In this document: piece by piece, positions 51,278 to 60,277 of the stretch | Layout of the letters: every line of letters starts with the position of its first letter | Numbering within the stretch: the first letter of the stretch is position 1 | Source of the DNA: an uncultured Bacilli bacterium | GTDB lineage: Bacteria > Bacillota_I > Bacilli_A > RF39 > UBA660 | Assembly (NCBI GenBank): GCA_944350345.1 | Contig: CALVOP010000002.1 | Location: 577-64,576, forward strand | Reading direction: 5' to 3' | DNA length: 64,000 bases | Position numbers and translations under genes: made by a program | Notes under the pieces: model-generated | Told to the model about the DNA's origin: nothing | Seen by the model: the letters and a program-made list of their open reading frames with translations, nothing else | The model's database searches: none

Positions 51278-51374
51278 TTTTACACTTCCTTGCACTTTGA
51301 ATTATAGCATATTTATTACTTTACTTCAAACATTTATGTAAACAAAAACTCCTAAAAATTAGGAGTTTGTTTTT

Positions 51375-51623
51375 TTATAGACATTCTACATAAGTATCGT
51401 TTAAACATCTTACACCACATATGCAGTTAATATTTATTGTAAATATTGAATCAGTACTTACATATGGATATAAACTTGTTGTATCTGTGTTAGGCGCTAG
51501 TACACGGAATGTACAGCAGCAGTCATCAACTTTTTCAACTCTAAATACATTAGAGCATCCAGTTGTTGTTCCGTCAGTACATGTTGTGTTTGTTCTCGTA
51601 GTAGGCATGCTCCACCATATCAT
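51375..51623 (-). CDS. Cys/Thr-rich small secreted-type peptide (77-82 aa, 9 Cys, including a CCC triplet), directly downstream of the serine recombinase
   Basis: The ORF MIWWSMPTTRTNTTCTDGTTTGCSNVFRVEKVDDCCCTFRVLAPNTDTTSLYPYVSTDSIFTININCICGVRCLNDTYVECL ends at a bidirectional terminator (51343-51375). Third-codon positions are A/T-rich like host genes. Strand is ambiguous against the overlapping + ORF 51421-51657. Confidence 0.4.
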   Translation of the reverse strand: MIWWSMPTTRTNTTCTDGTTTGCSNVFRVEKVDDCCCTFRVLAPNTDTTSLYPYVSTDSIFTININCICGVRCLNDTYVECL

Positions 51624-51640
51624 GCAAAGTGATAAACAAG

Positions 51641-53191
51641 TTAAAACGGTTTTCTAAACTTGTAATAAATTTCTATATTTAAATTTTCATCTAATAGAAT
51701 TCTATCAATGATATTTGATAGAATTTTTCTATTTGGTTTCTTTAAAGATAGGTAATCTTCTGCAATTTTTTCAAAATCTTTATTTAAACCATTATTTTTT
51801 AATTCTTCTATCTTTAATTTATTTTCTTCAATTTTCTTTTTATTAAGTTCTTTGTTTTCAATAATTGTATTTCTAATATTTAAATAAGTTTCTAAAGTTA
51901 TTATTCCATTCATTTTATCTGTATATGCTTCATTATCTTTTCGTTGAGCATCATTTATTTCAATTTCTAAACGAGATAATTCTTTTTCTAATTCTCTAAT
52001 CTTTTTTTCTATCTTATCATTTTTCTTTAAATTATCTACCATTTTTTTAGATACACATTTCTTGAAAAATGATTTTAACTCTTTTAAGACACTTTTTTCT
52101 AAATCATCATATTTCATATGATGAGAAGTACAAGCATTATACTTTGAATATTTACGATAATAATTACATACTAAATAACCTTTACCATGTGTTGTATTTA
52201 TTCCAATAGTATGACCACACTCTTTGCAATAGATAAAACCTTTTAATAAGTAGTTACTAGTGTTTTTAGTCATATGACTATTTTTAGAATATATGTTTTG
52301 GACTATATCAAAAGTTTCTTTATCTATAATAGGTTCGTGTGTATTTTCTACAATAATCCAATTTTCTTTTGGAGTTCTAACTAAATGTTTAACATTAACT
52401 GCAACTCGTTTTCTTCTACATTGACACATATTACCTATATACATTTCATTTTTTAAAATTTCATCAATAGTTCTAGTTTGCCAATGTCCATACATTGATG
52501 ATTTGTTCCCACGATTTAAATTCTTATAAATTGATGGAATAGGGATATTCTCATTATCTAAGTGTCTTGCAATCATTTGCAACGAATTGCCTTGTGCAAA
52601 CATTTCAAACATAGTTCTAACAACTTTTGCACTTTCATCATCAATTATAAGTTTATATTTATCATTTGGGTCTTTCTTATAACCATATGGAGCAATACCA
52701 CCTAAATGTTTGCCTTCACGTTTTTTAGTATATATAGTGCTTTTTACTTTTTCACTTGTATCAATACAATAGTGAGCATTCATAGCACTATAAAATCCTA
52801 CCATTTTATTTCCGGCTTTACTTTCATCAAATGTATCTATATCACTATTAATTGCAATAAAACGAACTCTTTTTAGTGGAAAGTATTGTCTAATATAGTA
52901 GGGAACTAAATCATTTCTTCCTAATCTTGATTGGTCTTTAACAATAACACAATCAATTTTCTTATATTCTATATCAACCATTAATCTTTTAAAATCTGGT
53001 CTTTCAAAATCCCCACCACTAAAACCATCATCTACATATTCATCAACAAAGATAAAATCATCATTAATTCTTAAGTAATTCATTATATAATCTCTTTGAT
53101 TTGTTATACTAGCACTTTCTTCTTTGTAATCATCATCTTCTCTAGAAAGTCTTAAATAAATACCAACTTTAAATTTTTTTCCCGTATTCAT
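51641..53191 (-). CDS. Large serine recombinase (resolvase catalytic domain, recombinase domain, zinc ribbon and coiled-coil), SpoIVCA/phage-integrase type
   Basis: The N-terminus VGIYLRLSREDDD...SITNQRDYI...GFSGGDFERPDFKRLM carries the catalytic Ser (LSRED) and resolvase motifs. It is 516 aa with Cys pairs (CKECGH...CNYYRK) for the zinc ribbon. Confidence 0.85.
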   Translation of the reverse strand: MNTGKKFKVGIYLRLSREDDDYKEESASITNQRDYIMNYLRINDDFIFVDEYVDDGFSGGDFERPDFKRLMVDIEYKKIDCVIVKDQSRLGRNDLVPYYIRQYFPLKRVRFIAINSDIDTFDESKAGNKMVGFYSAMNAHYCIDTSEKVKSTIYTKKREGKHLGGIAPYGYKKDPNDKYKLIIDDESAKVVRTMFEMFAQGNSLQMIARHLDNENIPIPSIYKNLNRGNKSSMYGHWQTRTIDEILKNEMYIGNMCQCRRKRVAVNVKHLVRTPKENWIIVENTHEPIIDKETFDIVQNIYSKNSHMTKNTSNYLLKGFIYCKECGHTIGINTTHGKGYLVCNYYRKYSKYNACTSHHMKYDDLEKSVLKELKSFFKKCVSKKMVDNLKKNDKIEKKIRELEKELSRLEIEINDAQRKDNEAYTDKMNGIITLETYLNIRNTIIENKELNKKKIEENKLKIEELKNNGLNKDFEKIAEDYLSLKKPNRKILSNIIDRILLDENLNIEIYYKFRKPF

Positions 53192-53649
53192 TTAAACCTC
53201 CTTGAATACTCGGGAAAATCTTTATTTAAGTCTATAAATATTATACCAAATTTAAGCATTATTTTCTATCGTATCATAGTAATAAACTAGTATTAAATCA
53301 TCTAACATTTCTTGTAAAGATTTCCCACTTTCATTAAAATAATTGATTACCATAATTATTAACCCCCTTTTAATAATATGCATACTTGAAAGTGTTCTTG
53401 CTTGAACACAGGGACTACTTTAACAATATTTTAAATTTAGGTCTATCTTGCAAAAATAACTATTTTTTAAAAACACATATACTGAAAACTCTAGGCAAAA
53501 CTTTATTTTTATTTGCTATTTAGGAAGTTTTTAAACAAATTTCAAGTTAAAAAAATGCACGAAAAACTATATTTTTTTTAAAAAAATAATAGTATGATGA
53601 ATTTACAAAGCACCGCGGACTTTGTAAAAGTAAGAAAGGAGTTAAAGAT

Positions 53650-58354: not shown

Positions 58355-58443
58355 CTTTACTATAAATTTTTAATCAATTTTTGTTAGACTTAAACTATTG
58401 ATTTTCCCTTTATTCATCTAACTTTGCTTAATTTTGTATCACT

Positions 58444-58674
58444 TTAAGGCGCAGGGCATGGAGTTCCGTTACATCCGTATATCATTATTGGTCTAGTGTT
58501 ACATACTATGCAGTTAGTGCCTCCTCCAAGTGCTGGTCTGTCACAAGAATTTAAACAATTTTCAGGACATGCGTTTGATTGTAGAACGTTTATTACTTGT
58601 AATATCTCAGCTATGCAACTATTGCATGTATTGCAGTTATCTCTATTACAAGAACATTCATTATTGTTACACAT
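58444..58674 (-). CDS. Very cysteine-rich small protein (76 aa, 14 Cys; N/T/C-rich): MCNNNECSCNRDNCNTCNSCIAEILQVINVLQSNACPENCLNSCDRPALGGGTNCIVCNTRPIMIYGCNGTPCPAP
   Basis: The ATG at 58674 is preceded by AAGGGGTGG with about 7 nt spacing (the ORF track begins at GTG 58683). There are multiple CxxC/CxC spacings. The function is not recognisable. Confidence 0.5.
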   Translation of the reverse strand: MCNNNECSCNRDNCNTCNSCIAEILQVINVLQSNACPENCLNSCDRPALGGGTNCIVCNTRPIMIYGCNGTPCPAP

Positions 58675-58880
58675 ATAATCCACCCCTTCTTTTCTTACAA
58701 TAATAATTTATGTAATTCTTTTAATAGTGTTCGTATTCTTACCTATATTTGTGGTTTACATTTAAAAATGTTTTTTCGTGCAAAATGTATGAAATATATA
58801 CTTTTTTGTCATGTAAATTTATATTAGTTATAAGTTGATAATTTTGTTAAGTTATGTTATATTTATTGTAGGAGGAAAAT

Positions 58881-60188
58881 ATGAAAAAGATAAGTTTGTT
58901 TTTTGCAGTTTTTTTAACAGCATTTCTTTTCTTAGGAACTGTAAATGCAAAAACTGTAAACGTTGCTAGCACTGACGATTTGAGTGCTAAAATAGGGGAA
59001 GCGGAGGAAGGAGATACTTTAGTATTAGAAGATGGCACTTATACTGGTGATATAACTATTGATAAGGCATTAACTATTGAAGGAACTAGTAAAGAAGATA
59101 CTATTATAGTTGGTCAAATTACTGTTACTGATAACTTTGATATGAAAAATGTTACTGTTATAGATGAACATGTAAATGGTACTTATAAAAATGTGATAAC
59201 TATTACTGAACCAGAACTTGTAGTTAATTTCGACAATGTAAACGTTAATGTTAAAGATTATGTTGCTGATAAAGACTATAAAACTGGTGTTTCTGGTATA
59301 AGCGCTGATGCTGATGCAAACGGTACTAAATTAACTATTACTAATAGTAAAGTTAATGCTACTTATGGTATTTATGTAAAAAGTGAAAAAAATACTATTA
59401 AAATTGAATCATCTATAGTTTCTGGATGGGCAGCATTAGATATTACTACTAGTGAAGGCGTATTACAAAATAATAATAAAGTAACTGTTAAGAATAGTAC
59501 TTTATATGGTACTAGTTATGTTCCTAAAGATAGCTACAATAATTATGGTGTTGTAGTTATTGGAAGTCAGAAAGATTTAAGTTTAACTATAACTGATAGT
59601 ACTATTAAAAATAATATTGTTACTGAAAATAGAATTGATTTAATATATTTTGGTGATTATTATGAAGATAGTGAAACTTCTATTATTACATTAAATAATG
59701 TTAAATTAGAAAATAATGATACTAATGGTGAAAGTACTAAAGTTAATTTTGCAACAGAAGGAAATGCACTTGGTGGACAAATATTTATAATTGATGAAAA
59801 GACAAATTTAGATATGACTACAGATGCTGATAAGGTAGGGTCTACAGGTCATGTATTTAATCTATCATCAATTGATGGTGTTGCTTCAATGATCGTACCA
59901 GATAAGTTTGTTGTTACAGCTGATGCTTTAGAAGTTGGTACAGTAGAAGGTTATGAATTTAAAGGTTGGTATACTGATGCTGAATACAAAAATGAATTTT
60001 TAGCCGGTACTGAGATAACTGAAGATACTACAATATATGCATATTTTGTAGAAATAGTTGAAGATACAACACCTGAGGTTAATAATCCTCAAACAGGAGA
60101 TAACGTTTTAGTATTCTTCTTAGTAGGTCTTATTTCATTAATAGGCTTTGTTGGTGGAAGCGTATATTTCTTAAAACATCAAAATTAA
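58881..60188 (+). CDS. Secreted right-handed beta-helix-like surface protein with a C-terminal NPQTG sortase (class B-type) sorting signal
   Basis: The signal peptide is MKKISLFFAVFLTAFLFLGTVNA. It has many N.T/V.V...T periodic beta-helix-like repeats. The C-terminus is NPQTGDNVLVFFLVGLISLIGFVGGSVYFLKHQN (motif, TM, positive tail). A terminator follows at 60226-60250. Confidence 0.65.
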   Translation: MKKISLFFAVFLTAFLFLGTVNAKTVNVASTDDLSAKIGEAEEGDTLVLEDGTYTGDITIDKALTIEGTSKEDTIIVGQITVTDNFDMKNVTVIDEHVNGTYKNVITITEPELVVNFDNVNVNVKDYVADKDYKTGVSGISADADANGTKLTITNSKVNATYGIYVKSEKNTIKIESSIVSGWAALDITTSEGVLQNNNKVTVKNSTLYGTSYVPKDSYNNYGVVVIGSQKDLSLTITDSTIKNNIVTENRIDLIYFGDYYEDSETSIITLNNVKLENNDTNGESTKVNFATEGNALGGQIFIIDEKTNLDMTTDADKVGSTGHVFNLSSIDGVASMIVPDKFVVTADALEVGTVEGYEFKGWYTDAEYKNEFLAGTEITEDTTIYAYFVEIVEDTTPEVNNPQTGDNVLVFFLVGLISLIGFVGGSVYFLKHQN

Positions 60189-60277
60189 TTTGACATATTA
60201 ATTTATAAATTATATAATTAATTTACTTGATGAGTGGGCATAAATCCCACTCTTTAAATTTGTAAAGGAGTGATATT

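Follow-up and report, generated by a model that had tools for sequence, protein, structure and literature searches.

The window analysed here, a 64,000-nt stretch of contig CALVOP010000002.1 from an uncultured Bacilli bacterium, carries a small integrative element of non-phage type at 51615-58456. The element is mobilised by a large serine recombinase (LSR) and is inserted within codon 73 of a minus-strand gene of the CotY/CotZ family, called cotZ in the following. Coordinates are window positions unless a comparison contig (L001, L002 and so on) is named. Two small cysteine-rich open reading frames (ORFs), 58444-58683(-) and 51375-51623(-), were found to be the two halves of this one gene. 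Neither ORF had been listed in an earlier note on the same DNA, which stated that no split host gene was found. On its own, the ORF 51375-51623 matched the Pfam profile Spore-coat_CotZ only from profile position 80 on (29.7 bits), and the N-terminal half of the gene was therefore suspected to lie elsewhere. The best join of the two halves covered profile positions 6-109 of Spore-coat_CotZ (PF10612) and scored 52.5 bits, where the cut-off is 24. When the joined protein was used as a query, the homology search returned 1364 relatives, essentially all with PF10612, and the cysteine columns were conserved. The best 120 of the 1364 relatives had lengths of 137-159 aa, and the top match, the homologue P0001, had 151 aa. 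Alignment of the halves with intact homologues placed the junction between ...CNGTP and WSMPTT.... While the element is integrated, the reading frame of the 5' half, whose ATG at 58674 is preceded by the ribosome binding site (RBS) agaagggg, enters the element for four codons (CPAP) and ends at a stop codon at 58444-58446.

The sole contig encoding P0001 is L001 (3300 bp), which carries nusA, rimP, a 435-aa gene with Flg_new repeats and an intact cotZ. BLAST of L001 against the window aligned 61420-58812 at 95.2% and 58794-58457 at 97.6% identity, and the next alignment followed directly at 51614-51341 with 97.4%. The last two alignments share exactly 2 nt on L001, the TG of the crossover. The jump from 58457 to 51614 with a 2-nt overlap identifies L001 as the empty site. 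The earlier note had taken the region for an integrated element and had suggested a comparison with close relatives; that comparison supplied the empty site, which proves the integration, and defined the attachment sites at the TG. Excision in silico restored cotZ precisely and in frame, and the rebuilt CotZ of 151 aa was identical to the intact L001 allele in 150 of 151 residues. Two other joins, one at a shared 7-nt ATGATAT (145-aa product) and one at a TT beside a palindrome (159 aa), were excluded by the alignment with P0001 and L001, which fixes the crossover at TG. The limits given before, 51296-60277, proved too wide on both sides: the right part, including the 435-aa gene at 58881-60188, is host DNA because that gene adjoins the empty site in L001, and the left part includes the cotZ 3' half and its terminator. 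The G+C content of the element is 21.9%, compared with 28.3% for the remaining window.

The recombinase gene, which the earlier note had correctly reported as a serine recombinase, was assigned to the LSRs on the basis of its Resolvase, Recombinase and Zn_ribbon_recom domains. PF00239 was matched over residues 11-161 (E 4e-20), with the motif YLRLSREDDD near the N-terminus; PF07508 (E 9e-25) and PF13408 (E 1e-11) lie C-terminal to the catalytic domain, and residues 380-480, approximately, are heptad-rich as judged by eye. The distance from the stop codon of the gene to the crossover is 27 nt. In cotZ orientation, the element end beside the 3' half reads ...TATCACTTT-gcatgatatgg-TG and the end beside the 5' half reads TG-ccctgcgcctt-AAAGTGATA.... 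The reconstructed attP is symmetric, with 9-nt perfect inverted arms, TATCACTTT and AAAGTGATA, each 11 nt from a non-palindromic TG. Inverted repeats flanking a central dinucleotide are the canonical layout of LSR sites (PMC5595907). The predicted junctions are GCATGATATGG-TG-CCCTGCGCC for attP and GGAACTCCA-TG-GAGCATGCC for attB. The features of the locus are collected in Table 1.

Table 1. Features of the cotZ element and of the adjoining host DNA (window positions).
Feature	Position	Strand	Remarks
Intrinsic terminator hairpin 3' of cotZ	51346..51368	-	predicted
cotZ 3' half	51375..51614	-	Trp73 to Leu151 and stop codon; 97.4% identical to L001 3027-3300
Junction beside cotZ 3' half	51583..51644	-	arm TATCACTTT at 51634-51626, 11 nt, core TG 51614-51613
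Inserted element	51615..58456	.	6842 bp between core copies, 6844 bp core to core; missing from L001
LSR, 516 aa	51641..53191	-	Pfam Resolvase, Recombinase, Zn_ribbon_recom; phrog_95 integrase, E 1e-101
Extended -10 promoter-like site (TAGAAA-17-TGGTATAAT)	53240..53268	-	p33-recombinase spacer; putative
p33, 33-aa peptide gene (MVINYFNESGKSLQEMLDDLILVYYYDTIENNA)	53252..53353	-	directly upstream of the recombinase in 9/9 cotZ elements
CATATTATT box	53372..53380	-	18 nt upstream of the p33 start codon; putative
85-aa accessory gene	53650..53907	+	divergent from p33/recombinase; homologues at the same position in L162 (37%) and L081 (40%)
Coupled 310-aa + 159-aa pair	54037..55450	+	ORFs 54037-54969 and 54971-55450, 1-nt gap
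259-aa protein, N-terminal hydrophobic anchor	55560..56339	+	no Pfam, PHROGs or PADLOC family
A/T-rich intergenic tract, 13.7% G+C	56340..56790	.	terminator-like hairpin 56349-56410
157-aa protein	56790..57263	+	phage family phrog_30856, no assigned function, E 2e-7
57-aa HTH_17 (excisionase-like) gene overlapping a 113-aa ORF	57572..58076	+	HTH_17 gene 57572-57745, Pfam E 3.3e-10
o78, 75-aa gene	58118..58345	-	first gene after the cotZ 5' half, same orientation; same position in L002 and L162
Junction beside cotZ 5' half	58427..58488	-	core TG 58458-58457; element-side arm AAAGTGATA at 58445-58437, 11 nt off the core
cotZ 5' half	58457..58674	-	codons 1-72 and the first two bases (TG) of Trp73; aligns with P0001 residues 1-72
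Sigma-K-type promoter consensus ACACTATTAAAAGAATTACATAAATTA (AC-N16-CATAnnnTA)	58704..58730	-	56 nt upstream of the cotZ start codon; putative

The same codon was found to be occupied in other hosts. A scan of one genome per species gave two close relatives of the recombinase, on L002 (84% identical) and L003 (71%), both from metagenome-assembled genomes labelled "Bacilli bacterium" and both with cotZ split at the same residue. A large protein collection contained 16 recombinase clusters at 57-100% identity, followed by a tier near 50%. Further relatives were located on L161 (67%), L162 (65%), L163 (66%), L164 (60%), L165 (57%) and L179 (50%). In all six a CotZ fragment directly adjoins the recombinase, and the second cotZ half lies 2-10 kb away wherever the contig reaches far enough. 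Including the window, nine elements with recombinases of 50-100% identity thus split cotZ at the same Pro-Trp codon, with TG as the core of every junction that could be seen. Eight of them have both ends on the contig, and all eight show the arm design ATCACTTT-N11-TG-N11-AAAGTGA; L165 has one end only. The elements differ greatly in size (6844 bp in the window; 8224, 2378, 8113, 9603, 6733, 3335 and about 3000 bp in the others), and the hosts are diverged, with CotZ identities of 59-96%. Several independent insertions by a tight integrase clade at the same position are the criterion for "regulated gene integrity" (PMC7192596), and this is the pattern of the nine elements, which differ in cargo and size and share one codon. 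The clade dedicated to cotZ is bounded, since the recombinases of L081 (47%) and L180 (49%), just below the 50% tier, do not adjoin cotZ. When the JGI/ENA metagenome contigs were searched with the recombinase, the best match was 47% identical. The window element itself was present, 99.4-100% identical and at the same integration place, on at least 10 contigs from independent samples; samples that contain it include ERR14045439, SRR35113935, ERR14020648, ERR4096368, ERZ27239287 and JGI 3300029906.

Some arrangements among these contigs deviated from the pattern in the window. In L161 (ENA ERZ27234817 k141_1699416, 3261-11763) the element is inverted relative to cotZ, so that the recombinase gene points towards the 5' half of cotZ, while the core (TG) and the arms are as in the other elements. 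The element of L081 abuts a truncated ORF for an NMT1-like binding protein (2574-3032). The metagenome-assembled genome of L002 contains a second LSR, 40% identical, on a separate contig (L026, JAZTXB010000129).

An all-ORF comparison showed the cargo to be unrelated between the nine elements. The nine had just two genes in common, that of the recombinase and, directly upstream, an ORF of 33-38 aa. In the window this ORF is p33. It has been annotated as a gene on at least nine contigs, follows the consensus xIxNxFNENGKxLQExLxELIxIYYYD and was preceded by a strong RBS in all three elements checked. p33 is also found upstream of the recombinase in L081 and L180, which have other targets; the regions concerned are L081 694-2483 and L180 9919-11563, each with a p33-like micro-ORF, and L081 has the TGGTATAAT spacer box as well. 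A second small gene, o78, is present in three of the nine elements, and no terminator was predicted between the cotZ 5' half and o78. The 57-aa HTH_17 gene, recognised as Xis-like in the earlier note and upheld by its Pfam match, was not found in the sister elements and thus occurs in one of nine. The most plausible candidates for a directionality factor would be, in this order, p33, o78 (which could instead be a regulator) and the HTH_17 protein. p33 was ranked first because it occurs in 9/9 elements, always beside the recombinase, and because of the precedent of GirX, a proven directionality factor of 42 aa without a motif (PMC5595907). o78 was ranked second on account of its presence in 3/9 elements and its placement for co-transcription with the cotZ 5' half. 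A 90-nt stretch between the crossover and o78 is conserved in the window, L002 and L162, and contains in the window a CTAACA-17-TATAGT promoter-like pair at 58359-58387(-); o78 may have its own promoter besides read-through from cotZ.

Putative regulatory signals were found at both ends of the system. The sigma-K-type motif upstream of cotZ (AC-N16-CATAAATTA) is identical in L001, and relaxed versions occur at equal offset in L002 and L003. In its strict form the motif is present six times in 128 kb (both strands), and only two of the six precede an RBS and an ORF, namely cotZ and 48815-49018. The latter is a 67-aa Pro/Tyr-rich ORF on the plus strand (…RPRPVPPRPYPPRPYPPFGPYMY) without a Pfam family, with the strict motif at 48768 and an RBS, and its product may be an unannotated spore-coat protein. 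A TGnTATAATAT box lies in the p33-recombinase spacer of six of nine elements (window, L002, L161, L162, L163 and L081), and a GCATAnnnTT box is located 10-20 nt upstream of the p33 RBS, likewise in six (window, L161, L162, L163, L165 and L081); the nine elements of this comparison include L081, which has a non-cotZ target. In the three most compact elements the p33 and recombinase genes are coupled or overlapping instead. Sigma-E, sigma-K and sigma-G recognise -10 boxes of the CATA type. The separate CATA-type signal for p33 suggests that sporulation would control directionality and not the supply of recombinase, as in SPbeta and the C. difficile skin element, where a constitutive recombinase is combined with a sporulation-controlled directionality factor (PMC5595907). 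In L003 and L164 the cotZ 5' half is followed directly by p33 and the recombinase gene, all in one orientation, which makes read-through from the cotZ promoter possible. A generic scan for sigma-70-like sites was uninformative in this A/T-rich region (70 sites, 73 expected from shuffles). The extended -10 promoter that the earlier note had placed before the 310-aa gene exists at 53950-53978, but such sites are no commoner than in the shuffles.

The host is probably a spore former, as it carries a sporulation gene close to cotZ. SpoIVA is encoded at 45541-47025(-), with 659 bits to TIGR02836 against a cut-off of 460. It is located about 4.3 kb from cotZ, separated by genes for a CPBP protease, a metallophosphoesterase, a histidine kinase, a PTS EIIB-like protein and a thioredoxin-like protein, and the neighbourhood may be a coat-related cluster. 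In Bacillus, cotY and cotZ are expressed in the mother cell. Where both halves were on the contig, as for eight split cotZ genes, an intact ORF of 143-151 aa could be rebuilt every time, and the cysteine pattern was kept. Between the split allele of the window and the intact allele of L001, 13 synonymous and 1 non-synonymous differences were counted (dN/dS 0.02). Between L003 and L163, both split and separated by a dS of 0.40, there were 28 synonymous and 8 non-synonymous differences (dN/dS 0.06). The split cotZ alleles are under purifying selection.

These properties make it probable that the element is a sporulation-gene intervening element of the skin/gin type, which would be excised in the mother cell to restore cotZ. 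A skin-like element had been a secondary idea of the earlier note, set aside there because no split gene was found; as a CotY/CotZ gene is split in frame, it is now the best-supported reading. In growing cells and in the forespore the element would stay integrated and cotZ would remain split. At a late stage of sporulation the two junctions would be recombined in the mother cell, which is terminally differentiated, by the LSR together with a small directionality factor, for which p33 is the best candidate. The element would leave as a circle, the 151-aa cotZ would be rebuilt behind the sigma-K-type promoter, and the coat protein could be made. The recombinase would be expressed from its own constitutive-type promoter (TGGTATAAT) and p33 from behind the CATA-type box, the other ORFs being variable cargo. 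The spore chromosome would retain the element, and in this way it would be inherited at almost no cost to the host, as in the cases of skin/sigK, SPbeta/spsM and gin/gerE.

Several points weigh against an intervening element of this kind. The production of the CotZ homologue in the mother cell is deduced from knowledge of the family in Bacillus together with the promoter motif. Neither an attP nor an attB junction was found among 10 contigs bearing the same element, and no attP match was found in viral contigs, so the excised circle was not seen. The CATA box of p33 is a partial consensus only and is missing in L002, L003 and L164; no strict sigma-E/sigma-K -35/-10 pair was present upstream of p33 or of the recombinase gene. 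Three candidates (p33, o78 and the HTH_17 protein) compete for the role of the predicted directionality factor. The correlation between recombinase and CotZ identity was weak (Spearman 0.34, p 0.08). Furthermore, in the CotZ cluster at 90% identity more than 130 contigs have an intact 151-aa allele and about 16 a half-length fragment, so that the insertion is polymorphic within this species-level cluster. Taken together, the weak correlation and the polymorphism imply that the insertions may be recent, which weakens the intact halves as evidence for selection while the gene is split.

An ordinary integrative element could account for part of the same observations. Such an element would use the conserved stretch of cotZ as its attachment site and inactivate a dispensable gene, and would be excised rarely, for transfer, with no link to sporulation. 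Horizontal movement fits this view. L003 and L163 have CotZ proteins that are 96% identical and recombinases that are 60% identical, and the reverse is seen for the window and L002 (CotZ 64%, recombinases 84%). From these mismatches it follows that the elements have spread horizontally into a conserved site and were not simply inherited. Co-divergence of recombinase and CotZ through long vertical residence had been considered and was rejected, the weak correlation pointing to horizontal spread. That most alleles in the 90% CotZ cluster are intact, that the recombinase has a sigma-A-type extended -10 box, that the crossover lies in the most conserved CotZ peptide (GTPWSMP), a good target for a promiscuous element, and that the related recombinases of L081 and L180 sit at other targets would all be expected of a plain element. 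A plain element, however, hardly explains why a clade of 50-100% identity keeps to one site in a sporulation-only gene, as every proven intervening element does. Nor would it explain the dN/dS of 0.06 between two split alleles at a dS of 0.40, or the rebuilding of cotZ without a frameshift or stop in 8/8 cases. Elements down to 2.4 kb are devoid of any transfer functions and could persist only if they cost the host little. The ordinary integrative element, the main rival reading, is therefore regarded as unlikely, while still deserving consideration.

A reversible switch of the active-lysogeny type, in which excision and re-integration in a fraction of the cells would give spores that differ in their outer layer, is improbable. 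An LSR is able to catalyse both integration and excision, and both allele states coexist in related populations; in C. botulinum, excision of the yabG element is heterogeneous and alters the timing of sporulation (PMC10747680). No replication or maintenance function for an excised circle was recognisable in the window element with Pfam and PHROGs, and an attP junction was absent from every contig examined. The present sequence data would look alike under this reading and under excision in the mother cell.

The cargo of the window element was mostly without recognisable families. The ORFs listed in the earlier note all exist and have no family, as stated there, except for the 57-aa HTH_17 protein, with its additional weak match to mad1, and the 157-aa protein of phrog_30856. 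The coupling of the 310-aa and 159-aa genes was borne out: on both contigs inspected, L181 and L182, a homologue of the 159-aa protein follows one of the 310-aa protein with a TAATG overlap at 37-58% identity, which shows the module to be real. The pair had no match in Pfam, PHROGs or PADLOC and was absent from all eight sister elements. Only 22 relatives of the 310-aa protein were found among 1.84 billion cluster representatives. Its AlphaFold model (14 sequences) was all-helical with a pLDDT of 87, and a fold search with the model returned generic helical bundles only and no specific match. The tract at 56340-56790, described earlier as almost purely A/T, is indeed the most A/T-rich stretch there and among the lowest 0.3% of 451-bp windows in G+C (27.7% for the whole window), but contains 62 G/C bases. 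No organised repeats, iterons or origin-like structure were found in it, only a hairpin and low-complexity sequence, and an Rfam search of the element gave no match at E <=0.1. Cargo lesions were seen in some of 10 near-identical copies of the element. Frameshifts affect the 310-aa gene in L185 and L190, copies that are otherwise 99.5% identical, and the HTH_17 gene in L183, where the 310-aa gene is altered as well; L188 lacks 36 bp of the 85-aa gene. Both the recombinase gene and p33 stayed intact in 10/10 copies, two of which are cut by contig ends. Errors of assembly may explain some of the cargo lesions; if real, the lesions indicate that the cargo is under weaker constraint than the recombination module.

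A prophage or defective prophage was rejected as the origin of the element. PHROGs matches were limited to the integrase, a DNA-binding protein and one family without known function, no blastn match was obtained in 50,697 phage records, and recombinase relatives in IMG/VR were at most 39% identical. The sister elements carry various other genes. An acyltransferase, a hybrid histidine kinase and an AAA_25 ATPase were found in L002. Acyltransferase and hybrid histidine-kinase/response-regulator genes are present both in the cotZ element of L002 (4873-7806) and in the non-cotZ element of L180 (3775-9831), which hints that modules may move between elements with different targets. The cargo of L003 (2223-2806) and that of L162 (7849-8431) each include a RelB/YafQ type II toxin-antitoxin pair. 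The entire 2378-bp element of L003 consists of p33, the recombinase gene and the RelB/YafQ pair, and this layout suggests an addiction-based stabilisation of a minimal element. The sole cargo of the 3335-bp element in L164 (8231-11566; ENA ERZ28653768 scaffold_221) is a complete gene for iPGM, the 2,3-bisphosphoglycerate-independent phosphoglycerate mutase (8317-9855), oriented as are cotZ, p33 and the recombinase gene. A gene of central metabolism is an odd passenger on DNA that the mother-cell chromosome would lose.

A defence function was rejected as well, the only PADLOC result being the assignment of the 57-aa HTH protein to mad1 (25.8 bits), a generic HTH. That the element is chiefly a defence/cargo island, with the 310+159-aa pair as an anti-phage, abortive-infection or toxin-antitoxin system as proposed in the earlier note, is the least probable of the readings, for although the pair is a real conserved operon on three unrelated contigs and RelB/YafQ pairs show that the family does bear addiction-type cargo, the defence-prediction and structure searches found neither a defence match nor a specific fold, relatives of the 310-aa protein are few, the pair is missing from the sisters, its 310-aa gene is frameshifted or altered in some copies whose recombinase module is intact, and the idea, even if true, would describe the cargo and not the nature of the element.

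The sporulation genes known to carry developmentally excised elements are sigK, spsM, spoVFB, spoVR, gerE and yabG. The literature and the supplement of the regulated-gene-integrity survey were searched, with incomplete coverage, and no intervening element in a cotY/cotZ-family gene for the coat, crust or exosporium was reported there. The gin element (recombinase GirC) in gerE of B. cereus ATCC 10987 (PMC5595907) resembles the cotZ elements in being a non-prophage that splits a small late sporulation gene of the mother cell, as cotZ is predicted to be, with an LSR near one end. Its attachment sites likewise have inverted repeats around a dinucleotide, and both systems contain a tiny, motif-less and often unannotated peptide, the 42-aa GirX being a proven directionality factor and the 33-aa p33 a candidate. 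The target of gin is, however, a transcription factor, and gin measures 28.6 kb and has three recombinases; in the present case the target is a structural coat protein, the elements measure 2.4-9.6 kb with one recombinase, and the hosts are uncultured low-G+C Bacilli.

The skin elements in sigK (SpoIVCA in B. subtilis; CD1231 and CD1234 in C. difficile; PMC5025042) are similar in that an LSR excises them in frame and rebuilds a mother-cell gene, as would happen with cotZ, and in that they are polymorphic between strains. Skin elements of varied size share only the recombinase (bioRxiv 10.1101/2022.02.25.481979), and the cotZ elements, too, are of very different sizes with the recombinase, and additionally p33, as common genes. 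The cotZ element differs in its target gene and in having no phage-like genes, and its excision would gate one structural protein and not a sigma regulon. The nearest LSR relatives outside the clade are less than 50% identical, and by that measure the recombinase is not an orthologue of SpoIVCA. SPbeta in spsM (SprA and SprB; PMC4191935, PMC5499854) has a late mother-cell gene for spore-surface maturation as its target, and cotZ is probably a gene of this kind. It combines a constitutive recombinase with a sporulation-controlled factor, and the two-promoter layout of the cotZ element suggests the same logic, but SPbeta is a 134-kb active phage, compared with a 6.8-kb element without phage structural genes. 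The yin element in yabG of Clostridium botulinum (PMC10747680) intervenes in a coat-related sporulation gene and, as for cotZ, has a small directionality factor known by prediction only. Yin is prophage-like and known from one strain, whereas nine cotZ elements occupy the same site in diverged hosts.

A more far-reaching proposal is put forward tentatively and must be regarded as doubtful as a whole. p33 would be the directionality factor, the smallest known and shorter than the 42-aa GirX, expressed from a sporulation-type (CATA-box) promoter while the recombinase promoter is constitutive. LSR and peptide would form a widespread, hitherto unseen family of minimal gene-gating cassettes, down to 2.4 kb in size and open to stabilisation by toxin-antitoxin pairs, which would spread horizontally into the GTPWSMP-coding site in cotZ of uncultured spore-forming Bacilli. 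Should p33 prove to be the directionality factor, the recombinase and the peptide would also make a compact reversible integrase system of two parts, of use in genome engineering. The combination of recombinase, 33-aa peptide and toxin-antitoxin pair in 2.4 kb is a natural minimal version and handy for dissecting the control of directionality.

For genome annotation, the finding matters because the two pieces of cotZ would otherwise be taken for pseudogenes, or the spore-coat gene would be counted as lost. What is new is a structural outer-layer protein as the target, together with a recombinase clade (50-100% identity) dedicated to one codon in at least nine elements without common cargo. New as well are the conserved micro-ORF as partner of the recombinase and the very small size of some natural variants, and the phenomenon is extended to uncultured low-G+C Bacilli known only as metagenome-assembled genomes.

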